From: a virus
Lineage: Duplodnaviria; Caudoviricetes
Length of the DNA: 64,000 nucleotides
IMG/VR virus record: IMGVR_UViG_3300028832_000007
Location: 6,459-70,458 of that record
Strand: one strand, 5' to 3'
Shown here: positions 18,920 through 42,513 of the stretch, in pieces
How the letters are laid out: the number at the start of each line of letters is the position of its first letter
Position numbering within the stretch: the first letter of the stretch is position 1
The notes under the pieces: model-generated
The model's input: the letters and a program-made list of their open reading frames with translations, nothing else
The model's database searches: none
What the model was told of the DNA's origin: nothing
Position numbers and translations under genes: made by a program

Positions 18920-19147
18920 TTAAAATCCGATTGCCTTCCGAATTGCCACGAGTCTATTTATCTCGGACTCGATGGTATCCTTTGTCAGGACTGTCCAGCC
19001 TTTTACCGACCCCATATTACGGACGGCGACTGAAACGGCTCCGGAAGTTGCGCCCAAAGCTCTCGCACATGCATTCATGCTGGGATACCTTATAATATCC
19101 CCGGAAAGCTTATTTATTGCGAATATCTCTTGTGATTGTTTTCTCAT
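18920..19147 (-). CDS. NUMOD1-like HTH protein
   Basis: IFAINKLSGDIIRYPSMNACARALGATSGAVS. Confidence 0.55.
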   Translation of the reverse strand: MRKQSQEIFAINKLSGDIIRYPSMNACARALGATSGAVSVAVRNMGSVKGWTVLTKDTIESEINRLVAIRKAIGF

Positions 19148-19192
19148 TTGTTTCTGATATTATATCTTGTTTCTATCAAAAATTATGCCATA

Positions 19193-22100
19193 CTAATCCT
19201 CCCACCAGGCATAGATTGCACCATAAGGACCACGAAAGCAGCCAGTCTCTCCGGATACGCCACTGCTTGCGAGTTTCGCATCAGCGATTTCCGAAAGTCT
19301 ATCGCAGACACAGGTCGATGTGTAGAAAGGCTCACCGGACCTCTTCGCGGCGGCATAAGCCTCAGCCTTTGTTCTGAATAATACTCTCTGTACTTTCATG
19401 GCTCAAAAGATTTTAATCCAATACTCTCGAGACGAGATGAAGCGCGTGAGGCACTGGTTGAATGTTTCCTCGAATTCATCGGGTTCGTAGATAGCAATGA
19501 AGGAATCTTCCTCCATGATATTCACCTCGCGGCTAACCTCCGCCTTGATTTCTTCCTCGGACTTCTCGAAGAGTCCGTTGTATCCCTCCCATTCCTTAGG
19601 GAGAAGGTCCCATCTGCCAATATAGATTTTTTCCATAATAATCTTAATCTTGATATTCCAAGTATTCTTCTTCAGATAAGCATTCAACGACAAAGTCTTC
19701 TGTTTCATAAACATCTCCGGGGAAGGCGTCGTCGTCAGCCCATCCGTCGAGCTCGAGTGCGTAAGGTACATCAGTCAGAGGATGTGGTTTCATCCCCACG
19801 ATGTCCTCGATTTTGTTGTACATAATCTGGCTCCCTCGTGGGGCCATAAAGATGTCAACCCAGCCGTCCTTGCGGGTCTTGTCGATTAGTTTGAAGTACA
19901 TTACTTTTTCTTTTGTGATTTTACAATCGTGACTTTCTTGCCGGCCTTGACAAGAATCTCGACAGCCTTCCAGGTATCGGTGTTCATCTGATCCGCGAAG
20001 AAGTGAAAGTTATCGGCACCTCTGTAGCAGTCATCCTTCATTGCACGCGTGAGGTGTCCGGTGTCACACCAGAACCCGATGAGCTGCGCCATTGGGGTTC
20101 CCTTCTTTATTTTTTCGCCGAATTCCTCGTAGTCCTCCTTGGCCTTGTAGAAATACATGTCTGCCCACAGGTTGACATTGGCGTGACACATCCAGTTCTT
20201 GAACTTCCTTTCCGGCTCGTCCTTCCTTTTTTCGGTCTTAGTATAGTAACCGATACAATTTACTCTGAGTGACATAATTATTTTGCTGTTCCTGTGTATA
20301 TAACGTTAATAATAATCTCATTGTTCGGAAGGACTTTGAATGACGTAACATCAAACAAGGCATATCCGAAGTCGTCATACGGGGCGGAAATAGTAAAGTC
20401 TAAGCGACTCTTACGAATCAACGCCTCGGCTTCTGCTTTAAGGTTCTTTTCCACAGATGCCGCTTCTTCGTCGCCTTCAAAAGTCCTGCGAAACTCCTTA
20501 TAGTTGGTGATCCAGATTCTTTTTAGTTTCATATCCTTATAAGATTAGATGTAAATTGTTTTTTCCATAATCCGGTACATGCTATAGATATCTATCGTCA
20601 ACGACACGCATACCGGCCTTCAGGCTACCGTAGATTGCGAGATAGCGTTCCGATTCGGCACCATCACACGCCAGCGCTCCCTCGAGAAAAAAATCCATCG
20701 CCTCCTGACGACGCCAGACCTTCGTTTTACCGTAGCAGGTCACTTCGACCTTATCATTTACTCTTTTTGGCATAGTTAATCCTCCGCTTTAGGGAATACA
20801 AAACGTCTTGAACAATATCCAATATGGAGCGTTGTGCCTTTCGGCACGACCGTCACTGTCGGGTCCGTCGATATTGTAAGATTGGTTGGCATTCCAAACT
20901 CTTCAATATAGCGTAACTCCTTAACGAGAGGGATGTCTTTTACATTGACATAGAATTTGTCCTTGTAGAAAACACATGCATTGAGCTCATTGATTGCGTG
21001 CTGCAATTCGTCAAGAGTCATCTGGTCCGCGCCTCCGTAATACCAAGACTTGCCTACGCCCTTGACTCGGCTGTCTACCCAAACCAAATTTGCCATAACC
21101 TTGTCCTTTTATTCGTTAATCTCTTTTTCCTCTATGGTTGTCTTCAACCGGCTTTTGTTCCAATACTGCTTAATGAACAGCCGCTTGGCCTTTTCCCTGG
21201 CCTCCGCCGGGGTATTAGCCGCGATATTGAAGAACGTTTCCTGCTCGCCATATGATTCCACATAGACGGTGAATAGATACTTTTTCTTTGCCATGCTTTA
21301 TCCCTCCACTGCTAAAAGGTTGAACACGTTGAACTGACGCCACCACTGGGCCTCGATGTCGAAGTAATCGACCTTGGTCGGGTCCTCCGGCTTAGAGTCT
21401 CCCTTGGGCGCCCACAGGCTCCCATCCTTGAGTATCATAAGGTCACGGCGGAGGGTGCCCACGGCCTCACGAACCGTTCCGTCCTTCTTCTTGTACTGAA
21501 ACTTGATTGCCTGCTCCAGCATCTTCTCCTGGAGTAGCATGATCTCGTCGGCCTTGATCCCGTCAACGCCGAGCTTTATAAGTTCATCTCGTGTCTTCAT
21601 ATTCTTACTGTGTTATTTCGATTCCTTTGGCAAGAAGGAAGCCCTCTATTCTGGCTTTCTCCTTGCCGAATGTCACCTCCCCGTACCAGGGAGCCCATGT
21701 AGCTTCCAGCATCTTACCTGTCTTCGGGTGAATGGTGATTTCCACTGTAAATGCGTCGATCGTGTCAGGACGCATATTCGCCGGCGTGAAACGATGCGTG
21801 ACCTCCCCCGAGATATCCGTAAAGAGCAGCGCTCTATGGACCTTGAGCATCCATTCATATGCGGCCATAAATTCTTCTTTCTTCTGTTTAATATCCATGA
21901 TTTTACCTCCTTCCGAATTTGTCTATGTAACTTTTCCATTGCGAAGCGGTATCGAACGTTATCCATTGTCCGTTGATCTCGCTCTTGTATTTATTCCCCC
22001 ATTCATAGAGGATGATACCCTTGTATTTCAGTAATTCCATTTTCATCCCATAGCCTCCGTTATATAACCTATCTGACTATCGAGCGCGTCATAAGCCCCG

Positions 22101-23942
22101 TCGAGTTCAGAAGCGATATCGTCGAGTTCGTCTATCTTTTCTTCCACGTCCGAGGCCGCATCAGACTCCTGCCATCTTTCCGAATGGCTGTCAAAGAATT
22201 CTTGCAGAGCGGTCTTATTCTCCTCTACCAGCTCCTTTGCGGCCTGTATCTTTCCCTGTGCGACGCGCAGGGACATGTTTGCCCTTTCCAGATTCTTTCT
22301 TAATTCTTTCTTCATCTCTTTTGATTTTTTCCTGCCAGGTCTCGCCGGTCCTGGCATAGTGAACATCCATTATCTGCTGGGCGATAAGACAGCAGACGAT
22401 ATATAACATTACGATGACAAAGAATATCTCCGCCACGGTTTCGATTACTCCAGTTTCCATAACAACATGTTTCTACTGCTTTTCGGCAGCTTCTGTGCAT
22501 CTTTTACTTCAAGGATGATATCCGGCTCATATTTGGCCAGGAAATCCTTGATATCGCAATTAAACGACGAGTATCGGAACAGATACGTCCCTTCCTTGAT
22601 CTCCCCCTCTATCAATTTCGCCTCCCCCATCCTTTCTTTCAGGAATGTTTCTGGGAAAGCCTCGTCGACAAGGGTTATGTCAATAAGCTGGCCGTAATCC
22701 AGTAACTCGGAGTTCTTCTTTATCTCCCTGAGTAGGTCTATCGCTTTCATCTTAATTCGAATTGATAGTTAAACATTTTCTTTTCCTTGTCCGAGAGGTC
22801 TCCCATATCCTCGCCGTCGGGGTCGAACACCTCTCCCTTGAAACACTCGCAGGAGACCTCGCCTTCTGTCCAGGACTCAGAATCGTAAGTAGCGTGATGG
22901 TAGCGACACCACCCCCTGACTTCAAAGTGCAGGCGCAAGAACCAGCCGGCGTCCTCAAACTCTAGCATCAGATCCCGGTCCTCGATATCATCGTCATAAG
23001 GATTGCCGCTGAAATCCTCCTCCTTGAGGCGGTCCCCGACATAGTCGGCCATTTTGTTAATAAATTCTTCCCTGTTCATAACTTTTTATACTACAAAAAT
23101 TATACCTGCCAGAGCCTATTCGTTTAGCTTTTTGTATAACACATCCGCTATCCTGCCAGCTCCGTCGGCCAGCTCGTTAAAGGCGTCATATGCTTCCTTC
23201 TCCACGAGTTTCGTGTAGTCGAATTCGTCTACCGCACTCCGCACCTTATCCTCGATTCGTGACTTATTGGCTTGCACGGCTTCGTCCAGTATCTTCTGCC
23301 CTTCCGATTTTCCGGAGAGATAGCTCTCGGTATGAAAGATATGATACTTAAGATTGTCGGAACGGAGGAAGAAGCTTTCCAGGTTCTCGACGATTCTCCC
23401 CTTGTAGTTAGGAATGAGCGTGTCAACGTCTTTTGACAGTGCATTGTAAGCGATGTTCGAGAGAACTCTTTCTACGTTCTCACTTTTCATGAATAGACTT
23501 TTGGTCGCAACGAGAAACGCTTCTCTTACAACCCCTTTCTGCTCCTCTTCTGAGAGGTAGTCATTTACATTAATTGTCAGTTCCATTTGTATTTACATGT
23601 TAAAATATTCCACTTAAAAACGATATCCATACCGGCGTTTTGCTTCCTCAGAACTCGCTTAGCGAGAGCTATGGCCGTATCCTTGTTACTCCGGCGGGCC
23701 TGCAGGTCAGAAAACCCGCCGTTCATAGTGTAGACGAAGTAAAGCGGGCCATCAAAATCGCTCCGCTTCTTCTTGTCAACCTCGGCCAGAACCTGGCCAG
23801 TCTCCTTTACGCTGAACTCCCAATACTTTCCGTTGGGGTGCCTGCATTCAGTGATGATGATTGTTTTTTCCATGTCAGTGCGCTTCAAAAAGTATCGTAT
23901 CGCCCTTGCCGGCGGTCCAGCATCCTTTGCCTGCTTCTGCAC
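19193..23942 (-). CDS. Cluster of ~17 small early-type hypothetical genes, many acidic
   Basis: Back-to-back 60-160-aa ORFs with coupled stops/starts; no recognisable catalytic motifs. Confidence 0.65.
21298..21600 (-). CDS. SH3-fold / DUF2693 (WYL_2-like) protein
   Basis: IKFQYKKKDGTVREAVGTL...DYFDIEAQWWRQF. Confidence 0.7.
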   Translation of the reverse strand: MKTRDELIKLGVDGIKADEIMLLQEKMLEQAIKFQYKKKDGTVREAVGTLRRDLMILKDGSLWAPKGDSKPEDPTKVDYFDIEAQWWRQFNVFNLLAVEG

Positions 23943-24603
23943 ATTCAGCGCAGTTGGACGGGCACCAGAACTGGCGGTCCGTCACATGTTCTCCCATTGT
24001 GCCGTCCTTCCATACCGGACTCGATACCGGCAGATTGTACGGGTTCTTCATGGAAAGCCCGCGCCAATCCGAGAAGATGACATGCAGGTTGCGGGGGATC
24101 TCGTTTCCCTTGTCCAGCCAGTGATTTACAAGGTTAAACATTTTTGTGAATACAAGGAACTCGCATGTCGGAGTCCTGCGTGCGATGTCCACGATGTGCT
24201 CCCAGTACCAGAAGCTGATGATTTCGCCACCACAATGCCAGCGGAAGTAACGCAGGAACTGGACCTGCAGGTAAATCTCGTGGAAGTACCGTTCCATATC
24301 ATCGTGCAGGATTGCGCTGTTGTTGGCCCGCATCTTCCGTGTCTCGTTGTAGCAACAGCAATTGCGGATGTCGTAGCAGCCCTTCTTGCAGTGCTCGCAG
24401 TTCGGACAGTCTGCGATTGGTATGAGGCTCACGCTCGGGACTAGAGCAGTCGTCTTGCGGTTGCCGTAACTGAGCTTGACATGAAGCTTCGATGCGTCCA
24501 GACTTTCCCTGAGTTCAACCATCTTGGCGACCCGTGCGTTGATAGTCTCGTCCTTGAATTCCGCATACTGATGCTTGCCGGTTAATGATTTATGTGATGC
24601 CAT
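23875..24603 (-). CDS. GP88-like Cys-rich (radical-SAM-related) protein
   Basis: GNRKT...SLIP..DCPNCEHCKKGCY, FRWHCGGEI, FLVFTK, N-L-H-V-I-F-S, CPSNCAEC..CW. Confidence 0.7.
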   Translation of the reverse strand: MASHKSLTGKHQYAEFKDETINARVAKMVELRESLDASKLHVKLSYGNRKTTALVPSVSLIPIADCPNCEHCKKGCYDIRNCCCYNETRKMRANNSAILHDDMERYFHEIYLQVQFLRYFRWHCGGEIISFWYWEHIVDIARRTPTCEFLVFTKMFNLVNHWLDKGNEIPRNLHVIFSDWRGLSMKNPYNLPVSSPVWKDGTMGEHVTDRQFWCPSNCAECAEAGKGCWTAGKGDTILFEAH

Positions 24604-24605
24604 AA

Positions 24606-26762
24606 TCAAATCAAATCGTAAGTTGGTTTATTGATTTCGTATTCTTCGGCTCTGATAACGATATCGTCGTAATCGCAGTCTCCGTAGTGTAATTCGGCAT
24701 AGCCATTGTGGTGGTTCTCGGTGTTATGAATGCCTGCCGAGTAATACTCCTCAAACATCTCCTCATCTTCGATGAACGCCTCGTCTACTCTTGCTACAGC
24801 ATCGCCAAACTCTTCATAAACCCCAAGAATGATGAAACTATCGTCATCTGCAGTGTGACGAACACGCGTCACAACCCATACTTTCTTTGCCATAACTATT
24901 CTCCTATTACTTGTTTAACAAAATCACTCCTGAGGTACAATACGAGCACCCAGTAGCCGCCGTCCAGCAACTCATCGTTGTAGTCGGCCTCGAAGTCGCA
25001 GCCGTCCAGGAGAGCCTGCATGCCGTACGGGTTGTCTTCCTCATCAGTCTCAATGTCGTAGAGCTTTACGCCCCACTTATCCCTGTTTTCCCACAACTGC
25101 TTGAATGCGTCCTCGTGGGAGCAGCAGTCAAAGGAGTGTCTTTCGGGCTGTCCATCCCCAGGATAGCCAACCTCCCAAAATGCTAAGATTGTCATGGTCT
25201 ATTCAGTTTTGATTAGTTCTGTATGCGTGTTCTCGAACTCTGTCGGGTCGTCTTCATACTCCCCGTTGTTGTAGCGGTCCTGGGCGATCATGCTTGCATC
25301 GTCCTCATTGTCCGCCTCTACTGTGATGTCCACCCAGCTGCGGTAGTGGAATCGGTAAGTGTATTTTGCCATAACTATAATACTATTTGATATCCATAAC
25401 ACCAGTGCCCGTCTGAAAGACCGAACACGCAGTGCTCAATGCTTTTCACATCAATCTCATTCACCATCGTTCCGTACTTTTGACCCGGAGCGCGGCAGAG
25501 TTCAACCCATTTAATCTTTGCCTGTTTTGGAGTATCCGCACCCCAACCTCCACGATAGGTTACGGTATCTCCAATCTTAATAGTTTCCATTGTCTACTCG
25601 GTTATTGTCCCAACACTTCACATCTTGTAATTTCCACTTCATAATGCGTATGGCTCCATCCTTCAGCCATGCTATACAGACAGAAGTAATCCGGCTTGTT
25701 CTTGTCAATCTTCATATCTTCGTCCGAATCTTCCATGTAATCGGAAATAGCCTCCTCCTTAGCACCGCTGAGGGACTTCCTCGCATCATCCAGATTCGAG
25801 AACACATACGGCTCGTGATCGAATTGCTCGAAATCAGAGACCTCATTAATTGTAACTACGTAAACTTCCATAACTATTCTTCGTCTATAAATTCCACTCT
25901 CATCCCCACGATCTCTCCATTGGTGTTCTTGCTGATGTAAAGGTCATAAAGTCCTTTGCCGTATCCGCTCGCCGAAACAACGCCCTTATTGTCAATAGCC
26001 CCCCAACGCTTACTCAAACCTTTAGAGTCTAGAGTTATATCGCAGATCCTGCGGTACCAGCTATCGTCTGGTCGATGCTCTTTATAGTAGTCGAAATCAA
26101 AGAATCCACACTGACGGCTATCGACGCCAATGCTGCCCGACTCGAACTTAGATATTTCGCCTTCCGGATAATCCTCGTGACGGGCAATCAGTTCTGCTAT
26201 ATAGCCTTCTTTAGTTCTTTTCACCTCTACTCCCCATACTCCTGGAAGAACATTCGACAGCTCTTTCTGACACCATATCCCGACCTCATAACAAGGATCA
26301 GAGACGATTACTTTCTTTCCTAAAATTATTTTTTCCATTGTTAGTCCTCCTTTCGTGTTACTTTGAAATGTTCACAGGCTTCGTAGAGAGCGTCAGAGAA
26401 AAGGTCGTCGAAATAGTTTCCGACATACGATGCGATTTTCTCCATCAGAATATCTGGAATGTTGTCCCCATTAAACCCGAGATTGTTGATAACGTCGCGA
26501 TCAACATCCATGATCACGAAAATTTCCTTCTTGTGCTTCATAATATGATAAATTAAAACATATCGGGATTACTCATGTAAATCTCGTATTCTATAACTTT
26601 CTTGCGAGCTTCTTCCGGATCCGCAAAAGCGGATTGAAATCTACGCTTATCCCTTCTAGGGTTGGCGGCATATTTACCCCTTCCGTCCCTATCTTTCTTT
26701 GCGATAAGGTGACATGGAATAATCTCGTAATTATGCACCGCCCAAAATACCTGTCGGGCCAT
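24606..26762 (-). CDS. Cluster of small acidic hypothetical genes (24606-24893, 24896-25195, 25199-25372, 25375-25590, 25602-25871, 25874-26338 with SDPCY motif, 26341-26541, 26553-26762)
   Basis: Contiguous coupled ORFs with high D/E content. Confidence 0.65.
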
Positions 26763-26764
26763 GA

Positions 26765-26959
26765 CTAATTCAACTCTATCTTCACATTCATTCCCAGTGC
26801 ATCGGCCCACTGGTATAGCCTTTTCAGTGTCAGTCCTCCGTGGCCATTCTCTATCTCGCTCAGACGAGCACGCTCCGTGCCCATCAGCTTGGATAGCCCT
26901 CCCAAAGAGATGCCCTTCCTCAGGCGCTCCTCTTTTAAACGCTCTACTATATCTTCCAT
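26765..26959 (-). CDS. XRE-family helix-turn-helix regulator
   Basis: RLKEERLRKGISLGGLSKLMGTERARLSEIENG..GLTLKRL..WADALG. Confidence 0.85.
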   Translation of the reverse strand: MEDIVERLKEERLRKGISLGGLSKLMGTERARLSEIENGHGGLTLKRLYQWADALGMNVKIELN

Positions 26960-26974
26960 GTCGTATATACACTT

Positions 26975-27493
26975 TCAATATTCAATTATCTCCGCTTTTT
27001 TTACTCTATTTTTGGGAACATAGTAGAAGCTTCCGGCGATCAGTAGCCACCAGGTCTTAAACTGACACCCTGGCGCCATCTTGATGACGGTCCGGCTTGT
27101 TCCGTCCTTCAGTTCCACTTTAAGTTTGGCGCCCACCGGCGCATCCTTCAGCGTCGTGTCCTTCTTGTTGGCACGGCACTTCTCGCGCCACTCGATCGCG
27201 TACTTGTTATCAGTCGGACTCAACGCATCCAGGACCGACTTGGGGCACTCGCATTTGTAAGGCCCGCACTCTTCGTCCATGAACTTCATTCCGAAGTTGC
27301 AGTACCCGGCCCTGTCAATGTGCGTAAGAATAATGGCCGCTCCGACCTTACCGTCATGCGGGCTCTTGACCGCTGCATAGTAAGTCGTGCCTACAACTGC
27401 GTCCCTTACTACCTCGTAGCCGTTGCCGATTTGCCTTCTGCAGATAGCCCTTCTATCGTAAGGCGCTACCTCATGATGATAATCCCATCCCAT
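26975..27493 (-). CDS. DUF6927-like protein
   Basis: GTTYYAAV...AAIILT...FGMKFMDEECGPY.CECP.SVLDALSPT..YAIEWR.KCR. Confidence 0.65.
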   Translation of the reverse strand: MGWDYHHEVAPYDRRAICRRQIGNGYEVVRDAVVGTTYYAAVKSPHDGKVGAAIILTHIDRAGYCNFGMKFMDEECGPYKCECPKSVLDALSPTDNKYAIEWREKCRANKKDTTLKDAPVGAKLKVELKDGTSRTVIKMAPGCQFKTWWLLIAGSFYYVPKNRVKKAEIIEY

Positions 27494-27495
27494 TG

Positions 27496-28017
27496 CTATT
27501 CTCCTTCTTTCATGAATTTGTTTATCCGGTCGTAGACGGCCTGAAAGAACTCGTCATGCACTCCGTCGATGTACCGCAACGGCACCGAGTCGAAATACTT
27601 GCTCAGGTCTGATTTCCAGCCGATCACGTCTCCTGCAGTCGAGCATATCCTCCTGCTTACCTCCTGCACGACCCGGCCACATCCTACACCCTTCTGATAA
27701 GACTTGCACCTCGGATGTATCATGTCCGGGCACAGCTCGAACAGCAGGTCATTGACTATGCTGAGCACAATCCGGTCGATCGGCTCATTGACATAGACCG
27801 TACGGAATTCCCCCGGCGTATCCTTCGGAATCCGTGCCGTGTGTGGCGGAGATATCTGATACCGCCCGTCCTTCATCTGCTGATAGATGTACGCTCGCAC
27901 CTCAGGCTTGGCAAGCTGATACAGCTGGTCTCGCCGCACATCCTTACCGATACCCTTGGAGATGGCATACGTCCATCGGTCAAGGTCGAAGAACATTGTT
28001 AATAACTTGTCTTCCAT
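27496..28017 (-). pseudogene. Reverse transcriptase, N-terminal half only (motifs 0-3; no YxDD)
   Basis: PPHTARIPK..GEFRTVYVNEPIDRIVL (motifs 1-2), IHPRCKSYQKGVG (2a), WKSDLSKYFDSV (3); then an unrelated 20-aa tail and stop. Confidence 0.85.
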
Positions 28018-28026
28018 AATATGTTT

Positions 28027-30890
28027 TTACTTTATGTATTTCACAATTTCAGATGTCGGTATATACCAGCCGTCATATATCATGCAACGGCCCAACCTTA
28101 CATCCGGATCATCATCGTACTTTATAAGGCAATCCCCGGACAGCTTCGTGCCAGCCGATGCCCTGCGCCAGCATATTTCTGCAACCATTTTTCTTACCTC
28201 CCGTCGATAACTTTCCAATCCACTACGCGAACATCAGTCTCGCCCAGCTTCTGATCAGTGACTGTGAACGCCAGGCCACTAACGACCGTGTCCCCCTTGA
28301 CATATTCAGGGTTGGCCGCATCTACGTGATACATCACACCATCAATATTCACATCTCCCTCAAACCCTATTTCAAACAATTCCTGCTCCGTAAGCGGTTC
28401 TTCATCGAAATACAGGGACTCTACGTATATGTGCCCGTTAAAGCTCAACGTGAGCTCTATTTCATTTATTCCTTTCATGTTAAACCCATTCTATTGAATT
28501 ATACGTGCAACCTTCAAAGTCGGTGTGCACACCGCGATGTATTTTTGCATGCTCCTTCATGTAATCCCGCTGGTCGCGGAATATCTCCAGAGCCCTCTTC
28601 TTGCCTAAAGACTCGGCGTACGGCAATCCATACATTCCCCAGGAACTTGTCTTCTCATCGTAAAAGTCGTACTCGGTCCCGTAGCAGATGCAGGCCATCA
28701 CCATCTCCCGACACCATAACTCATCTTCCTCCCTGCGCATCTCGTCCGTAAAAAACGGCCACAGCTCGCTAAGACCGCCGTCCTCACCGCGTATCTCAGC
28801 GGCTCTCTTTGCCAGGTCTCTTTTGGCCTGTGCAATCATTTTGTCTGTCATAATTCTTCGTCTAAATAGTCCCAGAACAAGGCCGTCTCCAGAAACTCTG
28901 TCGTTATGTCTTCCGGAGCCATGCCGTCCTCTATCAGGCCGTTAATGATATGCTCAGGCACCTCCCGGCCGAATGCGTAATACTTTTTTATACCCATATG
29001 ATTTCGTCAACTACTTCATCGAGATCCAAGCCCAGGAAGTCAACTCCGTTGTCCACACACCACTCCTCGATGGTATCTGATATGTCGTCAAACAACGCAT
29101 GATTCGCTACCTCCAGCGGACAGTGCATGACACCCATCATACTCAGCGCCAACTGGATGCGCTCCTCATAAAATTCCACATTATCCCGCACATAGGCGGC
29201 AATGTCCCTAATTCGCTTTGTCATAATCTTAAACTTTTAGTTCAAACTCAGAACATCTGCACGCATAGGCTTCCGGACGGACAGCATAGAAATATCCCTG
29301 CCTGCCGGCGATAGTCTTCGGCTTCAGTTCGCAATGATGGTTAACCCACCACTGGTCCTGCATCGTCAATTTACCCTCATGGCAATGGACGCAATCCGCA
29401 CACCTCGGGCCGGCATACCTCACCTGCCTCTTGATAATCTGCACTCTACGCCCTTTATCAACAATCTTCGCCCGGCACTCGGGCACGATCTTGTATGTCC
29501 CTTCCGTCAGTTCCATGTCGCTACTCTACATAAAAATCCCTGACAAATCCGCCCTTAAACCGAGCACACAGCTCTGCCCATTCAGGCTTTATCAGCTGCT
29601 GGCCGTTTCTACTCAGACATACCGGATACAGACCGCCTGGAACATGCGTAAAGCACTCGCCCGGCTCACAGTCTCTATATCCGACCGAAAAGTAAAGGTT
29701 TACCGGCTCAACCTGCTCACCCTTATCATTCACATAGTAAAGGTCCCCAACCATTTGAGGACCTGACTTATTCACACCTTCGCACTTATCGAGTAATGCC
29801 ATAAGCTCTTTTCTATGCTGCTCGAGCATCTCTTCCCATGTACTCATAACTCGTCCGCCTCCTGGATAATTTCCTCTGCTACCATGATACGGTCGCCTGA
29901 CTCAACAATTCGGAATCCGTCAGCCTTCATGGAAAAGAGGTTCAGTTTACTACTCAGGCTCTTTACCATTTGACTCTCTGCAAGATGCTCGGCCGTTACA
30001 GGTTTACCTAAGCGTTTTCTTTTTTGGATGCACCGGGCAGCTGCCTGGAACTGCTCATAAATTCCATATTCCTGCACGTTCAGCAGGTACACGTGAATCA
30101 AATCGTTGCGTTCAGAATGCTTATTCGTGTCCATAACTCTCTATTTAAGTAAAAACCTCTCCTTGAACAAATCAAGCTTATTCTCGTTATCAATCTCGTC
30201 TGCCTTTTCCTGATACGTGTAATGAGTCCACTCCACCCTGTCCTGTCGTGTCATGATGTTCCCAACAAACTCAGATACGGTCAGCGATATACTCCAGTAT
30301 GCTTCTTCCGTTCCATACACCTTCAGGTCAGTGAATCCGTTCACTTTGCCACAGAGACTATTCTGTATCTGCTGGAACTCGGCCAGCACTTGCTTTTTTG
30401 TCTTCATGTCATTCATTGTTTACTCGGTTATACAATGTAGTCGTGTGCGTGTCCGTTCAACTGCCAGAACCCGCACTTGTTCCTGAATATCCACCGATAA
30501 GCCGTTGAAAACTTAATCGGCCTGACTTCATAGTTGTTCCATACGCCCATCAACTCGCGGGCTGCTTGCTTTCTATTCATCACTCAACCCCTCCACCTTC
30601 CAGAACCACACCTCACGGTCATCGGTATCGAATTTTTCAGCATCGTTCCGCACGATAACCACGTCGCACGGATGGTTTATATCGAACGGATGAATCTTGC
30701 TCGCAGTACACTCCCACACGGTGAGGTATATAGCATCTTTCTCTATTGTTCCAGCCTTGATACGGAAATCGCCGAACGTTTGTTTCAGCCAATCGTTGAC
30801 CAGACGCGACCCGTCCCAACTTACCAACCCGCCACACTCGGCCAAGCTACTATCTTGGAGCATATTCTTGATTATCTCTATCGCTTTCAT
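28027..30890 (-). CDS. Cluster of small early hypothetical genes (incl. 28027-28218, 28194-28478, 28480-28851, 28988-29224, 29229-29516, 29521-29847, 29844-30134, 30141-30416, 30428-30580, 30573-30890)
   Basis: Contiguous coupled ORFs. Confidence 0.65.
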
Positions 30891-30894
30891 AACT

Positions 30895-31760
30895 CTATGC
30901 GTTTATCAATATTTTACTTAGTTCGATATCATCTTCGTTGTTTGTGATTCTATACCACCCGCTTCTCCTTGTAAAAAATTCTCCGGCACATTTTGCTCTT
31001 TCCTCAGTAGGTCTTTCCTCAACCCTTGTGATGATGTTCATCTTGTCATAAATGATTGCTGCGTACATATCTCTTTATATTTTTCGTTGTCCTTACGCCT
31101 CGCCCTATAATAGCAGACGGCACCAGGTCCCCCCAATGCCGCACGTCACTTACTTCGCCGCCTCCCTCTCCATCCGCTCAAGCTTCCACCCCTCAACATA
31201 ACTCTCCAGCGGGCCCACGTCGTACCGCTGACACAACCATACGAACCGTATCCGCCCGTATCCCTCGCCGAACCGCAACACCAGGCGGTCCAGCACCAGC
31301 TGTAACCTCGCACTACGCATACCTCTCCCCCTCCAGCTGCTCCTGAACCCTCTCCACGTGCTCCCTCCACTGGCGTTCAACATACCTCGGACTGACCAGC
31401 CCGACAATCCATAACAATGCCTTCTTCGCCCAGGCTACTCTGCTTCGCCTCAGACGATTCCTGTACCAGTTGTTCATTTCCTATGCTTTTTTCGTCGTTC
31501 TCTCTTGCGGTCGATCCTCTCAATCAGCCTCTCCTCATCGTCCGCCCACCGCTGACGGGCCAGCCTGTCGCTCGCCCAGTCATACCTCGTGTATTCCCTG
31601 CTCATTCCATCGCCCTTATCAATTCCTCCGGCAAGCCGTCCACGGCCGCCATTATCGCACCCATGCTCCATGACGAGCAGGCGAGCCTCTTCAATATGAG
31701 CTGACTCGCCTCGGCCGTCGACACCTTGTGCCCCAGCCAGTCCTTTACTATGTCGTCCAT
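30895..31760 (-). CDS. Chain of five microproteins (30895-31068, 31150-31320, 31313-31477, 31474-31605, 31602-31760)
   Basis: 43-57-aa ORFs, three junctions being overlapping stop/start pairs (TAATG, ATGA). Confidence 0.6.
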
Positions 31761-32017
31761 TATCTTAGCTGTTCGCCCATCTGTTCGTACTCGTTGTCAG
31801 TCGCCGCACCCCAAAAGTAGCCGTGCATCATGCTGGCCATACAGTACCATTCAATTGATTCGATGTACTCTACCATCTCGACAAGATCGTCCTTGTCCAT
31901 TCGTCCGCCGTTCTCCTCGGTCCACTTGTCGATAATTCGGTCCATCGTCTCGGCCATCGTCCAAAAGCCGAGTTCGTTATTCTGCCTATAATTTGCAGTC
32001 GCTTCATACTTGTTCAT
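31760..32017 (-). CDS. Acidic hypothetical protein
   Basis: 85-aa ORF. Confidence 0.65.
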   Translation of the reverse strand: MNKYEATANYRQNNELGFWTMAETMDRIIDKWTEENGGRMDKDDLVEMVEYIESIEWYCMASMMHGYFWGAATDNEYEQMGEQLR

Positions 32018-32116
32018 GGTTCACTCCATTTTTACCACCGCCCCACCCGTTTACGGGCAGGGCACGCACCGAGCCTGAGGTCTGTTTATACTCGCTCGGT
32101 CGAGTGCTGGCTGGGC

Positions 32117-32494
32117 TTACTTGCTCTCCTTCTCAGCCTTGGAGGCGTTGAGTATCCTCGCCCTGTTCGCCCTGCGGACATAGTCCACCACCTGACCTGC
32201 CGTCCATGTGGTCTTAGGCTTGAACTCGCCCTTGCTGGTCGTGCCTATGACCTTGTCCTTGCAGTAGTTCGTGCCGTCGAGGTGCTTGATGATGAATGCG
32301 GACGAGAAGTCCTCGATAACCAGTCCGTCGTCCTTCGCGGACTTGATGCTGGATGCGAGTTCCGGGTCCTTCTCCGGCTTGTCCCACACTGCCTTTACTG
32401 CCTTTATGGCGTGGTTCATTCCTTTGCCTTCGAGGTTTGCACTGGTTCTGAAAGCCTTTGCGTTTGCTGTTGAGAAATTTACGATTGTTTTCAT
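32117..32494 (-). CDS. First gene of the leftward early operon; Lys/Ala-rich hypothetical protein
   Basis: 125-aa ORF with a good A/T-rich initiation region and biased codon usage. Confidence 0.75.
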   Translation of the reverse strand: MKTIVNFSTANAKAFRTSANLEGKGMNHAIKAVKAVWDKPEKDPELASSIKSAKDDGLVIEDFSSAFIIKHLDGTNYCKDKVIGTTSKGEFKPKTTWTAGQVVDYVRRANRARILNASKAEKESK

Positions 32495-33112
32495 GATACT
32501 AAAATTTTGAGGTTAAACATAAGATTAGCACCCCCCGACAGAATCGGACTGTCGCAGGGTAGCCGTTCGCAACTATCTCTTCGTCTCTTCCAAACCATCG
32601 GAAAAGCATGGTAATCACTTTAGTTGCCGTAGCCGTTATTTGTCTTTTTATCTTCTATTCGTTAGTATTCTTGTATGCCGTGTTCGTTCGCGTTCACATA
32701 CACCGATATATCGGGCTGCACCCTCAACACCATACTAACGCAGAGTTGGGATTTCCGGCACCCAACCGCCTAATAAAAAAGTTTCATCTGTTAGAATCCC
32801 CTTTGCAGTGCTCCTGCGTAATCGGATACGTTACGCCCCTACTTAGCAATATTTCCGTGCCTAACTTCGCTTTTGGCATAGTGGGTTTATTCAGCTATGG
32901 GTGCGACTTCCTGCCGTGGCAGTGTTCGCAGATACGGCTGTATGGCTTTTGACCTCCTCAACTAACATTCATGTTAGGATATCGTTTCCGACATCTTCAA
33001 CGGGTGGACTACCTTTTTCGGGTAACTGCACAGACTTGTCAATGAACAAACACCGCTTACAATCCTACGGCTTGTAATGTGTTCCGTATCTCTCCCCTCT
33101 CTCATGTTGCTG
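32495..33112 (-). ncRNA. Candidate large structured ncRNA / 5' leader (~615 nt)
   Basis: Lies between a consensus promoter and the first ORF; at least seven stems found by eye; no sense-strand ORF of 60 aa or more. Confidence 0.6.
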
Positions 33113-33115
33113 ATG

Positions 33116-33146
33116 CAAAGTTACTACTATTTTTCCATACTACAAA
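33116..33146 (-). promoter_or_regulatory. Strong sigmaA-type early promoter (leftward)
   Basis: On the - strand: TTTG (33146-43), 19-nt spacer, TAACTTTG (33123-16). Confidence 0.85.
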
Positions 33147-33581
33147 TTTATCATAGTATATTTTATAAAAAAGTTACGATTTTATTGATTATCAATGAGT
33201 TACAAAGACGAAAAATTGCATAGTAAATATATTGTAACGTTTTAAGTGCTTGTATATCAATATGTTAGCAATCTTGCAGTTTTGAATGATTCTAATTTGC
33301 TATATATACCTATATTATAGCGGAAAGGCTTCCCCGCTTGTGCTAAAATATGGCACAAGCTGCCACCCCCTATTAAAACGTTTTAATAAACCATGTTGCA
33401 AAATTGAATGTTTCCCTTTGATTCTGCAACACATTGAGCGTTAAGGGGGTAAGGGGTATTTAACTACCATAGCGAACCACGTACGGTGGAATCCTGAAAT
33501 TTTTTTTTCTTGCAAAAACGGCCCTGTAGGTACGTAGGGTGGCGATTGGGTCAAACCCGTCCCTGAGAGTGTCTGAGCCGG

Positions 33582-33890
33582 GGTGACGGAAGCGTGGTGA
33601 CGGGTGACGCAAACGTGTATGTTAATTGGACCAACCGTCACCTTTTGCGTCACCACTTAACATACTATATAATAAATACTTACAACCTTAGGTGACGGAG
33701 TGAACTTTGGTTTAAATAAACTATCAATTGAAAAAAGTTAAATTTATGTAGAAAATTTGCTAAATTTGCGTCACTGCGTCACCCGACCGGCAGAAATCCC
33801 GTATTTACGGGGCTGAGGGGCCGATTTTTGAGGTGACGCATCGAAAAAAGCTAGCGTCACCGGTGAAGCATTTGCGTCACCAGCGTCACC
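33582..33890. repeat. Iteron-like GGTGACG/CGTCACC array around an AT-rich core; putative replication origin
   Basis: GGTGACG at 33582, 33596, 33603, 33691, 33832; CGTCACC at 33636, 33648, 33777, 33855, 33875, 33884; AT-rich 33655-33768; directly upstream of the primase/helicase genes. Confidence 0.75.
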
Positions 33891-33904
33891 GGCACGGAAT
33901 TTGC
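33890..33904 (+). promoter_or_regulatory. sigma54-type -24/-12 promoter motif (one of a series)
   Basis: CGGCACG-GAAT-TTGC, 14 nt before ATG 33919; related copies at 38144, 38680, 45440, 48048 (+) and 19190, 23107, 53681 (-). Confidence 0.65.
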
Positions 33905-33918
33905 AAGTGAGGCGAGTC

Positions 33919-34404
33919 ATGGATTTCAAGGTAAAAAGGAAAGGCAGGATAAGGGTGGTTCCCGGATACGGGGGCCGCTACTCGGTGAGCGACCTGGGCA
34001 TGGTCTACAGCGAGGGGGAGGAGATGTCCCTGATCGGGGGCAGGTTCGTGAAGCTGTGCTCCGGGGGGCGCGTGGAGAAGGTGGACGTGGCGTACCTGGT
34101 GGCGAGGGCGTTCATAGGGAACGCGGCGCTGAGGCCGTACCTGAGGCACAGGGACGGTGACCGGAGGAACAACAGCGCGGAGAACCTGGAGTGGGTGGAG
34201 CGCAGGATGGAGGGCCGCAGGGGAAGGCCCGAGGGGACCGGGAGGAACGTGCTGCAGTTCGACCTGGAGGGGCGGATGCTGGCGTCGTTCCCGAGCGTGC
34301 CGGCGGCGGCGCAGTGCCTGGGGATATCCCCGGACAGGATCCGGAACAGCCTGGCCGGAAGGACGTCGACGGTGGCCGGGGAGTGGACGTTCAGGTACGA
34401 GTAG
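33919..34404 (+). CDS. NUMOD4-HNH-NUMOD1 homing endonuclease-like protein
   Basis: VPGYGGRYSVSDLG; HRDGDRRNNSAENLEW; VLQFDLEG...FPS...AA..LG. Confidence 0.8.
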   Translation: MDFKVKRKGRIRVVPGYGGRYSVSDLGMVYSEGEEMSLIGGRFVKLCSGGRVEKVDVAYLVARAFIGNAALRPYLRHRDGDRRNNSAENLEWVERRMEGRRGRPEGTGRNVLQFDLEGRMLASFPSVPAAAQCLGISPDRIRNSLAGRTSTVAGEWTFRYE

Positions 34405-34440
34405 GGAATGGCATGGGATTTGAAGTAAAATACCGCAATT

Positions 34441-35916
34441 ATGGATTATATAGTGGATTATCTGTGTGAAACGGTGGGGCCCAGCATCGCCCGCGCCGGC
34501 GAGATCGACCGCAGGGTGGACAAGCGGACGGAGGCGGGCATGTGCGAGACCTTCCGTAGGTATATCGTGGGCGAGGAAGGCGACGAGGGGAACCAGCTGT
34601 TCAGGGTGGTGAATGACCAGATACTGTGCGTGTTCAACGGGAGGTTCTTCGAGAGGATCACCGACGTGCAGCTGACGGGCGTGATCCGCCGTGTGCTCCG
34701 CAGGATGGAGGTGGGCCTGGTCTACCTGACGGGGAGCGCCTCCACGATCAGCAAGTACGTGATAGACTCGATGCTGGCGGAGCCGTCGATGCGGTTCCAC
34801 CCGGACCGCAGGTACGTGTGCTTCGACAACTGCGTGCTGGACCTGAGGACGATGAAGGTGAAGGAGCATGGCCCGCAGTATTGCACGGACGTGATAATGA
34901 ACTTCGAGTACAGCCCGGGGGCGAGGAGCGCCCTCTGGGACAGGGTGATAGAGACCACGGTGCCGGACGAGGGGATGCGGAGGGCGTTCCAGCAGTTCTG
35001 CGGGGCCTTCCTGCTGAACCGCCACGAGTACAAGTTCGAGTACGTGTGCTTCGTGATAGGCGAGGGCCAGAACGGAAAGAGCATCATCTGCAAGGCGATG
35101 GTGAACGTGTTCAAGAACGAGGACGAGCGGGGCAACGCGAGGACGAAGTGCGTGACGACGTACACTCCGGACCAGCTGTTCAGGAGCCAGCAGATGCAGT
35201 ACGTGATGGCGGACGTGCAGGGGAAGGTGATGAACTACTGCGACGACGTGAGCGACAAGGACTTCTCGGGCGGCGACTTCAAGGCGTTCGTGTCGGGAGG
35301 CGAGTTCCGTGGAAGGAGCCCGTACGGCAAGGAGGTGGTGGAGGTGACGGACGTGCCCCTGATGCTGTGCTGCGCGAACAGGATTCCGCCGACCACGGAT
35401 GACTCGGAGGGTTATTTCAGGAGGTTCCTGATCATAAACTGCCCGAACCACGTGTCGGAGAGGGATAAGGACCCCCAGCTGGAGGCGAAGCTGCGTGCGG
35501 ACGACGTGCGTGCGGCGATCTTCAACTGGATGGTGGAAGGCTACGGGGAGCTGATGAAGAATGCGTGCAAGATAGAGATGACCGGGGCGATCCAGCAGCT
35601 GAGGGAGGACATGAAGGCGGAGTCGAACAGCTGCCGCAGGTGGATCAGGGAGTACGGCTACGTTGCCGTGGAGCCTACCGGTGTCCTGGACGAGAGGTGG
35701 AAGTCCCTGAGGGAATGGCTCGGGATATACAAGCAGTATTGCATTGATTACGCGGAGGGTGCGCCTAAGACGCAGAAGTCCGTGAGCAAGATATTCAAGG
35801 AGATGGGTTTCGCCAGCCAGAAGCGCAAGGACGGCGTCTGGTATTGCATAGGCAGGAACGTCGATGAGGAGCTGCGGGACGACGGGGTGGGGAGTGAAGA
35901 CAATCTGCCTTTTTAG
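34441..35916 (+). CDS. D5/P4-family SF3 helicase (primase-associated)
   Basis: Walker A GEGQNGKS, Walker B NYCDD, FKAFVSGG, CANRIP...GYFRRFLII. Confidence 0.88.
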   Translation: MDYIVDYLCETVGPSIARAGEIDRRVDKRTEAGMCETFRRYIVGEEGDEGNQLFRVVNDQILCVFNGRFFERITDVQLTGVIRRVLRRMEVGLVYLTGSASTISKYVIDSMLAEPSMRFHPDRRYVCFDNCVLDLRTMKVKEHGPQYCTDVIMNFEYSPGARSALWDRVIETTVPDEGMRRAFQQFCGAFLLNRHEYKFEYVCFVIGEGQNGKSIICKAMVNVFKNEDERGNARTKCVTTYTPDQLFRSQQMQYVMADVQGKVMNYCDDVSDKDFSGGDFKAFVSGGEFRGRSPYGKEVVEVTDVPLMLCCANRIPPTTDDSEGYFRRFLIINCPNHVSERDKDPQLEAKLRADDVRAAIFNWMVEGYGELMKNACKIEMTGAIQQLREDMKAESNSCRRWIREYGYVAVEPTGVLDERWKSLREWLGIYKQYCIDYAEGAPKTQKSVSKIFKEMGFASQKRKDGVWYCIGRNVDEELRDDGVGSEDNLPF

Positions 35917-35927
35917 TCGATGGGGAT

Positions 35928-36833
35928 ATGGAAGACAGGTTTGCATATGATCCGGTTCCGGCGCTGAGGAACGCGCCGAGGCTGATGGGTTTGGAGCTGC
36001 GGGAGTGCGGTCCGAACAAGCTCTGCGGAGGGTATTATATTGACGGTGAGCCTCACGCTTACCGGCGGGACAAGCTGAAGGTATATATATGGAAGGGAGT
36101 GGTGTTCGTCAGCGAGGAGGGGGGTCCCACCATGTCCCTGACGACGTGGCTGCAGCAGTACGGCGGGGCGGCGGATTATCGGGAGGCGCTCGGCATGATC
36201 AAGGGGGGTGACCAGGCCCTCCATTGGGACGGGACGTACCGTCATGTGGCGAAGGTGGAGCGCAAGCATGTGTCCCCGGACGTGCTCCAGGGGGCGAAGG
36301 AGTATGACCTGAGGCTGAGCCCGCTGTTCCGCCACATGTGCCGGCTGTTCCCGGAGGAGGTGGTGAGGGAGGTGTGGGCGGCCTATGAGGTGACGGCTAC
36401 GCCGAGGGGGGGGACGTGCTTCTGGTACCTGAACCCGTCGGGGCAGATCTGCCATGACAAGGTGGTATGGTATGGGGAGGACGGCCACAGGAAGAAGGAG
36501 CTTCCGATGGGACGCCGGTACCGGATAGGTGATGGCTATACGGAGAACCCTATGTTCGGAAGCCATCTGCAGGGGACGGTGAGAGGGGTCCTGGAGTCGG
36601 AGAAGAGCTGCCTGTATGCCGCATGTTACTACGGGGGCGTATGGCTGGGAACCGGCGGGAAAAATAACATACGGGACGTGGCGGGCCTGCCGCTGTATCC
36701 CGACAGGGATGCCGAGGAAGCCTGGAGCCGTGCCGGCGACTGCGTGGACTGGTATTCCGAATGGCCGGAGTGCGGCGAGCATTGCGACCTGGGAGACAAG
36801 ATAGAATGGTTAATTTTGAATAATTCTAAATAA
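35928..36833 (+). CDS. Putative primase (Toprim-like, DUF6371-type C-terminus)
   Basis: DKVVWYGEDGHR, MFGSHL, VLESEKS, WLGTGG, LYPDRD. Confidence 0.6.
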   Translation: MEDRFAYDPVPALRNAPRLMGLELRECGPNKLCGGYYIDGEPHAYRRDKLKVYIWKGVVFVSEEGGPTMSLTTWLQQYGGAADYREALGMIKGGDQALHWDGTYRHVAKVERKHVSPDVLQGAKEYDLRLSPLFRHMCRLFPEEVVREVWAAYEVTATPRGGTCFWYLNPSGQICHDKVVWYGEDGHRKKELPMGRRYRIGDGYTENPMFGSHLQGTVRGVLESEKSCLYAACYYGGVWLGTGGKNNIRDVAGLPLYPDRDAEEAWSRAGDCVDWYSEWPECGEHCDLGDKIEWLILNNSK

Positions 36834-38503: not shown

Positions 38504-38590
38504 TCCCGGGTAGCCCAACCGGTGAGGCCCTGGCGAGCCCCGTTTATGGGGCGGACCGGTAAGATGCGGGTTCGAGTCCCGCCCCGGGAG
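38504..38590 (+). ncRNA. tRNA-like RNA 1 (no canonical anticodon loop)
   Basis: 7-bp acceptor TCCCGGG/CCCGGGA, TAGCC D arm with GG, T arm GCGGG-TTCGAGT-CCCGC; anticodon arm extended. Confidence 0.8.
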
Positions 38591-38643
38591 CTCTGAGTGA
38601 AAGATTTTTCATAAGCAGTGGTTGTTATACATGTGTTAAGTTG

Positions 38644-42345: not shown

Positions 42346-42442
42346 ACCGGGGTACCTCAGAGGTTAGAGGAAGGTAAGCGTGGGCAGGTAAGAAGGGCTA
42401 CGCGCTTAGCCAAAGACGCGGGTTCGAACCCCGCTCCCGGTG
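42346..42442 (+). ncRNA. tRNA-like RNA 2 (long anticodon-position stem, purine-rich loop)
   Basis: Acceptor ACCGGGG/TCCCGGT, D stem CCTC/GAGG, T arm GCGGG-TTCGAAC-CCCGC. Confidence 0.8.
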
Positions 42443-42513
42443 CTATGGTGTGGGTGAGGGACAAGACCAGCCGCTACTGGCGGAGGAGGCATGAGAAATC
42501 CGCACCGACTTTT

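Follow-up and report, generated by a model that had tools for sequence, protein, structure and literature searches.

The window analysed here is a stretch of 64,000 nucleotides (nt) from a tailed phage (positions 6,459 to 70,458 of IMG/VR record IMGVR_UViG_3300028832_000007), and our subject is the gene-free leader at 32495 to ~33146, which separates the early promoter on the minus strand from the first early gene, ORF1. The identification of this leader as a large structured non-coding phage RNA of a family absent from Rfam 15 is well supported by comparison with related leaders, and we consider it highly probable that a conserved structured RNA is encoded here. Compensatory changes go beyond both shuffled and slid controls, and no reading frame is conserved. 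The first-pass annotation of the window had predicted a highly structured RNA of ~615 nt at this place, and family conservation, covariation and the lack of conserved coding bear that prediction out. The RNA is modular and comprises a 5′ segment, a three-way junction with two flanking CAAAAG motifs, a hairpin whose loop is A-rich, a long-range stem that presents a 19-nt loop and, at the 3′ end, a tRNA-like module. Judged by the sequences compared, the RNA represents a genuinely new family of large structured phage RNAs, one that includes its own tRNA mimic and is linked to both ORF1 and pistol ribozymes.

A Long Non-coding Leader behind the Early Promoter

A pattern scan located the early promoter on the minus strand at 33116..33146, with a −33 element TTTG (33146-33143), a 19-nt spacer and a −7 box TAACTTTG (33123-33116). 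The arrangement TTTG-N19-TAACTTTG is that of Bacteroidota promoters, and the −7 box together with GCAnnAG is kept in most related leaders, 629-905 nt before the ORF1 ATG, so the promoter that the first-pass annotation had drawn ahead of the leader holds up. Transcription is predicted to start at about 33110 and, as the ORF1 ATG lies at 32494, the RNA would extend over about 616 nt up to the ATG (32495..33110, minus strand). In a group of tailed phages that were recovered from ruminant gut metagenomes and have promoters of Bacteroidota type, transcription from the early promoter probably begins with this RNA.

The longest open frame on the minus strand between 33120 and 32495 comprises at most 51 codons, and no conserved peptide was found across 15 leaders in any frame or on either strand. 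A 43-codon open reading frame, which had been raised as a caveat to a non-coding interpretation, does begin just after the predicted start (ATG at 33105), but its start codon is missing in relatives (alignment A1). No terminator-like site was found within the leader stretch. Scans with all 4227 covariance models of Rfam 15, through which GOLLD was tested as well, gave no family match at E<=10 within 32300-33400 of the window and no leader family at E<=1 in 17 relatives. Overall, these scans returned only the adjacent Pistol ribozyme, true tRNAs elsewhere and sub-threshold rows at chance level, and the suggested comparison with ROOL, GOLLD and motifs associated with reverse transcriptase (RT) produced no match to any family.

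Covariation Supports a Fold of the Leader

A gene-free leader of 620-905 nt with the same architecture and promoter box precedes every ORF1 homologue with readable upstream DNA, and we compared 16 distinct leaders, full or partial. With the stretch as query, blastn found no match among 50,697 phage records, and between leaders it detected almost no similarity, even between the window and locus L005, whose ORF1 proteins are 76% identical. Despite this divergence beyond the reach of blastn, MAFFT alignment brought out motifs common to the leaders, namely two CAAAAG motifs (spaced 76-81 nt in nine leaders), GTTCTTTGAAAAnnTTGTG, a 19-nt block TGAACGCNAACGAAYACGG, two copies of GAACGGCT and a hairpin with the loop TTCGAYT.

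RNAalifold applied to eight MAFFT-aligned 3′ halves yielded 53 pairs, and the covariance model R1 built from this alignment scored 185-227 bits on the eight seeds and 55-64 bits on four non-seed leaders. When 12 rows were fitted to R1 (alignment A7), 90.5% of cells were paired, versus 60.2% in shuffled and 31-44% in slid controls, and 47 of the 53 pairs showed compensatory changes; none of 500 shuffles reached the observed values. The unfitted MAFFT alignment A3 gave a similar picture, with 87.1% of cells paired (63.9% shuffled, 31-46% slid) and compensatory changes at 42/53 pairs. For the three-way junction we used a MAFFT alignment of 13 sequences (A9) and a structure obtained from summed pair probabilities, as RNAalifold on MAFFT alignments recovered almost nothing there; 77.6% of cells were paired, compared with 55.2% after shuffling and 36-44% after sliding, and all 24 pairs were compensatory. 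The structures of the 3′ domain and the junction were both derived from the very sequences tested, which makes the slid controls the fairer comparison, and the slid values are clearly lower. At paired positions G-U far outnumbers A-C (62:10 in A7 and 29:7 in A9), indicating that the fold belongs to the transcribed strand. All stems listed in the first-pass annotation, GCGTAA/TTACGC among them, are present in the window at the coordinates given there, nearly all are helices of the family, and covariation was seen in relatives for its CAGC/TGCGA/CTGC, GTTGGG/CCCAAC, 9-bp long-range, GCAACTA/TAGTTGC and CGACAG/CTGTCG stems.

Within the 3′ domain, the hairpin D5 (GTTGGG/CCCAAC, 32745..32766, minus strand) carries a conserved A-rich loop (TGCCGGAAAT) and corresponds to R1 helix 1, in which five of six pairs are compensatory and 85% of cells are paired. 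It is followed by the long-range stem P6 (32660..32740, minus strand), in which CGTTAGTAT at 32740-32732 pairs with ATACTAACG at 32668-32660. This part of the leader corresponds to R1 helices 2 and 4, with compensatory changes at 8/8 and 5/6 pairs and 96-98% of cells paired. The stem encloses a GTATG/CATAC hairpin (32701-32673, minus strand) with a near-invariant 19-nt loop, TGAACGCGAACGAACACGG (32696-32678), whose columns are invariant across the aligned leaders, and a conserved AATAG follows directly after P6 at 32659-32655. No target complementary to this loop was found in the window, and matches in 6 of 201 Bacteroidales genomes were not above the reversed-pattern control. The words CGAACG and GAACGA, also present in the invariant loop, are strikingly common in the early regions of several relatives, after ORF1 (e.g., L007:2525-2967 and L016:1945-2300); CGAACG is not enriched across the window, with 23 occurrences found versus 32 expected.

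The three-way-junction module occupies 32869..32966 on the minus strand. Its outer stem joins 32966-32960 to 32885-32879 and surrounds the hairpin GGT-CAAAA-GCC (32954-32944) and a second arm composed of the stems CAGC/GCTG (32940-37 with 32895-92) and TGCGA/TCGCA (32930-26 with 32906-02), capped by the tip CTGC-CACG-GCAG (32922-11). The module ends with the second GCCAAAAGC motif (32877-32869), and the window's CTAACA-TGAA-TGTTAG stem overlaps a family helix. In the leaders of relatives such as L023, L021, L016 and L013, a hairpin with a covarying stem and the conserved loop UUUUGUUUU lies ~430-470 nt before the ATG; it is missing from the window, which retains only a U-run at 32782-32773. 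The UUUUGUUUU loop could base-pair with the CAAAA loops of the junction, to which it is complementary, in a loop-loop contact.

The 5′ segment (32978..33077, minus strand) comprises two putative hairpins and a conserved motif. TTACAA/TTGTAA, with the tip GCCGTAGG, forms the first hairpin (33077-33057), and GATGTCG-GAAA-CGATATC the second, which is GNRA-capped (32995-32978); between them lies the motif TTCATTGACAAGTCTGTG (33046-33029; family consensus GTTCTTTGAAAAnnTTGTG), with invariant columns in alignment A10.

A tRNA-like Module at the 3′ End

The 3′ end of the leader is formed by a tRNA-like module (32530..32641, minus strand; R1 helices 5-9). A first copy of AACGGCT (32637-31) lies upstream of stem P7 (GCAACTA/TAGTTGC, 32627-21 with 32575-69), which is flanked by the two GAACGGCT copies and contains a hairpin with an invariant GG in its terminal loop (32596-95). 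P7 is followed by GCGAACGGCT (32570-61), and then by an acceptor-like stem ACCC/GGGT (32560-57 with 32533-30), the strands of which flank a T-arm mimic, CGACAG-TCCGATT-CTGTCG (32554-32536; R1 helix 9). Helix 9 has compensatory changes at 11 of 12 pairs, and the acceptor-like helix on which the T arm is stacked also covaries. In all 21 copies of the module, the 7-nt loop reads U-N-C-R-A-N-U and is closed by G-C, which reproduces the tRNA T arm (U54-N-C56-R57-A58-N-U60 with the closing pair G53-C61); the second loop position is U in 13 copies, C in six and G in two. In the R1 consensus, two helices of 6 pairs each are stacked across a mismatch of 1-2 nt and give ~12-13 layers, the length of the acceptor/T-arm stack of tRNA. 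The window's own stack has 4 + 6 pairs with 2-nt bulges. From its position, the GG loop of the P7 hairpin may take the role of a D loop and contact the T loop (32548-42). An AU-rich segment of 35-45 nt between the module and the ATG is conserved.

The module is not a complete cloverleaf tRNA, as RF00005 gave no match in the leaders of the window and its relatives, and ARAGORN, applied to the leaders of the window and nine relatives, called neither a tRNA nor a transfer-messenger RNA (tmRNA). The Rfam tmRNA model produced weak matches in relatives (11-14 bits), confined to the T arm at model positions 347-363. With no ARAGORN tmRNA call in the leaders and an Rfam match limited to the T arm, we rejected identity with tmRNA.

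ORF1 and the Proposed Cleavage Slot behind It

The gene that always follows the RNA is ORF1 (32117..32494, minus strand), which encodes 125 amino acids with a basic C-terminal helix. We collected 22 homologues at 54-76% identity, plus a copy at 34% in the IMG/VR contig L248. A single-protein scan of IMG/VR found nothing, whereas a profile scan retrieved one viral and five metagenome loci. ORF1 has no Pfam or PHROG match. An AlphaFold2 model with a predicted local distance difference test (pLDDT) score of 88.7 gave no informative match by Foldseek against PDB, VIA-align wide and ESM Atlas. Judging from the model, RNA binding via the basic C-terminal helix is plausible, nothing more.

Between ORF1 and the next early gene lies a Pistol self-cleaving ribozyme (32033..32105, minus strand; RF02679, 59.3 bits versus a gathering score of 34.5). 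The same place behind ORF1 is held by a pistol in L013 (1902-1974), L021 (1285-1357) and L248 (596-678), at 56-57 bits, and by a second copy of P7 plus minihelix in L005, L022, L023, L015 and L009, with R1 scores of 22-50 bits. The remaining relatives have GC-rich hairpins behind ORF1, several with a UUGAA-type loop. Pistol and tRNA mimic fill the same slot, and we read both as RNA cutting signals. In phages, different classes of self-cleaving ribozyme are known from common gene neighbourhoods (PMC4604425). GC-rich hairpins, several of them with UUGAA- or CUGA-type loops, were observed behind ORF1 in L006, L011, L014, L016 and L008, and just before ORF1 in L006, L007, L011 and L014; they might constitute a further, third type of signal for processing.

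L248 was found independently, by DNA pattern, and scores 91 bits with R1; among the 117 loci matched by a pattern for the T-arm context, it is the sole family member. A further pattern, GAACGCNNACGAAYACGG, matched 42 viral and at least 120 genome loci, and was discarded because all were chance matches by nhmmer against a 3′-domain profile. R1 had no match in the 151 Bacteroidales genomes searched. The related phage L002, with a helicase 75% identical, is without the leader stretch and ORF1, and its first early gene is unrelated; it has a weak R1 match (22 bits) to a T-arm-like hairpin on the early strand. L002 also carries a full tmRNA gene on the plus strand just upstream of the helicase (L002:5424-5759, 72 bits), for which ARAGORN gave a tag of 29 residues.

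Genomic Surroundings

The phage record is complete, with 70,458 bp and direct terminal repeats, so that the window covers most of it, and the phage DNA is contained in bovine gut metagenome runs. It is a tailed phage with an SPP1-type portal and an HK97-like capsid match; it further encodes a D5/DUF5906 primase-helicase, an HNH endonuclease and a C5 methylase. The sign of the GC skew changes at 32-34 kb of the window. Here the small early genes run leftward on the minus strand from 32494 and the replication genes rightward from 33901, with the leader stretch and a GGTGACG array (33582-33890) between them. Eleven of the window's 16 GGTGACG copies fall within the array, in both orientations and between the divergent early and replication promoters, and from its sequence the array looks like an iteron/origin array or a regulator-binding array. 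A 686-codon open frame (33886-35946, minus strand) lies antisense to the HNH and primase-helicase genes, with 61% GC and no family match, and is probably spurious. ARAGORN reported two oversized tRNAs on the plus strand with unusual anticodon positions, at 38504-38591 (88 nt, Ala-GGC) and 42346-42443 (98 nt, Pro-GGG), both of which had already been flagged in the first-pass annotation as tRNA-shaped RNAs.

Functional Interpretation

We lean towards an account, probable in our view as a whole, in which a structured RNA is released from the ORF1 message by way of a tRNA-like cutting signal. Taken by itself, the idea that the tRNA-like module is a processing signal is slightly favoured. Host tRNA-processing enzymes would cut the module, RNase P on its 5′ side, RNase Z on its 3′ side, or both, and a cut at the module would free an RNA of ~550 nt from the ORF1 message. 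The element behind ORF1, either the pistol ribozyme or another copy of the tRNA-like module, would part ORF1 from the rest of the operon by a further cut, and the ORF1 mRNA would thus be cut out at both of its ends. It is tempting to speculate that the freed RNA has a role in the early phase of host take-over, whether as a decoy, a scaffold or an RNA-protein particle, perhaps together with ORF1. We hold a separate trans-acting role of the RNA to be rather doubtful. The same reserve applies to the suggestion that the ~550-nt RNA acts in trans and stands for a novel class of phage RNA, which would be synthesized during the first minutes after infection and freed by a tRNA mimic. Such an RNA might be a decoy or scaffold against the host that ties up defence or processing factors directed at tRNA or RNA, or might build an RNA-only or RNA-ORF1 particle like ROOL or GOLLD, which we put forward tentatively.

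Several observations weigh against this account. The minimum free energy of the single-sequence fold is unremarkable (z = −1.27), so the case for a structured RNA is comparative and not energetic. The 5′-most 140 nt gave no consensus fold with RNAalifold on the MAFFT alignment, which leaves the 5′ segment without formal support; its hairpins TTACAA/TTGTAA and GATGTCG-GAAA-CGATATC, both listed in the first-pass annotation, have counterparts in relatives that were recognized by eye. The start, ends and cleavage of the leader RNA are predictions made from sequence. No CCA is encoded by the module, the stem being followed by CAA, CGA or CTA where RCCA would be expected in a tRNA, and its two helices are split by a small mismatch or internal loop; recognition by RNase P or RNase Z is therefore putative. 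L248 is without the P6 domain, and L006, L007, L011, L014 and L020 have another hairpin instead of the tRNA-like module, so no module is universal. Finally, the sample is small (~17 loci), and as the majority of loci were gathered via ORF1, the linkage between RNA and ORF1 exists partly by construction.

The leader might instead act only in cis, controlling the expression or stability of ORF1 or the early operon through translation, antitermination or protection from nucleases, with no separate RNA being made. The RNA always lies directly upstream of ORF1 and in the same orientation, the AU-rich segment ahead of the ATG is conserved, and a 5′ stem-loop remaining after a cut could stabilize the message. 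However, one gene of 125 amino acids rarely calls for a regulator that is 600-900 nt long and has invariant loops besides 14 or more covarying helices, the cleavage elements flanking ORF1 suggest physical separation, and the stretch holds no terminator-like site; we regard a purely cis-acting leader as unlikely. It is improbable, in our estimate, that P7 and the minihelix form a new class of self-cleaving ribozyme and not a host-enzyme substrate. The module does sit in the slot held by pistol in the window, L013, L021 and L248, ribozyme classes substitute for one another in phage contexts (PMC4604425), and the duplicated GAACGGCT together with the invariant GG loop exceeds the needs of a bare RNase P substrate, but the exact T-arm signature in 21/21 copies is what tRNA-processing enzymes recognize, and the module matches no known ribozyme model.

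We also considered a divergent member of ROOL or GOLLD, the builders of RNA-only nanocages. The rumen habitat is that of ROOL, the size is near that of both, and both are phage-borne and tRNA-associated, with GOLLD likewise combining a conserved 3′ region with a variable 5′ region (PMC12286853). Such membership is nevertheless very improbable, given that the leaders of the window and its relatives stayed unmatched in the Rfam scans and that the ROOL model (RF03087, gathering score 99.1 bits) finds nothing in the whole phage genome. The first-pass annotation had proposed that the RNA may be the template of an RT encoded 4.5 kb downstream. That open reading frame (27496-28017, minus strand) does belong to the same operon, and tRNA-like ends can prime reverse transcription in other systems. 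However, it is an N-terminal fragment that matches positions 1-91 of 205 of RVT_1 at 24.6 bits, below the Pfam cut-off of 29.6 bits; the next gene begins 3 nt past its stop, and the complete 70-kb genome holds no other RT-like match. Within the parts of the relative genomes that were available, tblastn found the fragment in none of the fetched loci, and PF00078 found nothing in the records behind L015 and L002, so the anticipated co-occurrence of the RNA with RT homologues did not materialize. No direct repeat of at least 30 nt links 32495-33146 to any other part of 19000-34500, and hence no template/variable pair was found there. With neither an intact co-occurring RT nor a repeat pair found in the sequences covered, the leader does not show the hallmarks of RT-associated RNAs such as the retron msr-msd or the template repeat of diversity-generating retroelements. 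An RT template is very unlikely, and we attach next to no probability to a template or primer function.

Conservation could also act at the level of DNA, through an origin, operator sites or hairpins in single-stranded DNA. The stretch adjoins the GGTGACG array, and some motifs, GCCACGGC/GCCGTGGC for example, are palindromes found in either orientation. In contrast, the excess of G-U over A-C at paired positions, the long-range and nested helices with compensatory changes, and a T-arm mimic that is meaningful only as RNA leave this explanation a very slight chance.

Relation to Known Systems

To our knowledge, only a handful of large ornate bacterial and phage RNAs have been described (OLE, GOLLD, ROOL, raiA and few others), with functions that are mostly open. 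In tRNA punctuation and in the MALAT1-mascRNA system, an embedded tRNA-like structure recruits RNase P and RNase Z and thereby defines an upstream 3′ end and a downstream 5′ end. The phage leader likewise carries a tRNA-like structure inside a long transcript, and mitochondrial tRNA punctuation resembles the proposed excision of the ORF1 mRNA. Unlike mascRNA, however, the phage module consists only of an acceptor/T-arm half and a GG-loop hairpin, has no cloverleaf and no CCA, is set in a phage early operon, and its cleavage is predicted. The proposed excision also resembles what happens in phage T7, where RNase III cuts the early polycistronic RNA between genes, one cut removing a long leader before the first early gene; the cut sites are plain hairpins, and the leader is not a conserved structured RNA. 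Here, by contrast, the punctuation would consist of a tRNA mimic, a pistol or GC-rich hairpins, which are interchangeable. With tmRNA, the module shares an acceptor stem stacked on a T arm, the absence of an anticodon arm and the weak Rfam match, and the true tmRNA gene of the related phage L002 provides a further link. It differs in that the 5′ strand of its acceptor is local and not the 5′ end of the RNA, and in having no G3-U70, no tag frame and no ARAGORN call.

Theta (HDV-like) ribozymes adjoin tRNAs of gut phages, and thus offer another case of small cleavage elements paired with tRNA-shaped RNAs in gut phage transcripts (PMC10879173); in our case the ribozyme is of the pistol class and the tRNA-shaped partner is not a decoding tRNA. 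ROOL, first seen in cow rumen, and GOLLD are phage-encoded, elaborately structured RNAs of 600-800 nt found near tRNAs or tRNA-like elements (PMC12286853). The leader RNA is similar in size, equally phage-borne and ornate, and has a tRNA-like element of its own. In contrast to ROOL and GOLLD, it heads the early operon directly behind the promoter, matches neither covariance model, and is fused to a protein gene via the tRNA-like module, with links to ORF1 and pistol ribozymes.

The family context of the leader RNA is unusually informative, as the RNA stands invariably at the very start of the early transcript, has a fixed partner gene and a tRNA mimic, and comes with a slot for interchangeable elements. 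The filling of this slot by a tRNA mimic, a pistol or a hairpin, depending on the relative, turns the roles of a large phage RNA and of pistol ribozymes into questions that can be tested at the bench. A further suggestion is that tRNA-like elements punctuate the early transcripts of phages with Bacteroidota-type promoters, a mode of control that has not been described for such phages. If the tentative trans-acting reading were true, the module that swaps with pistol would define RNA punctuation marks of a new family, or might itself be a new ribozyme.

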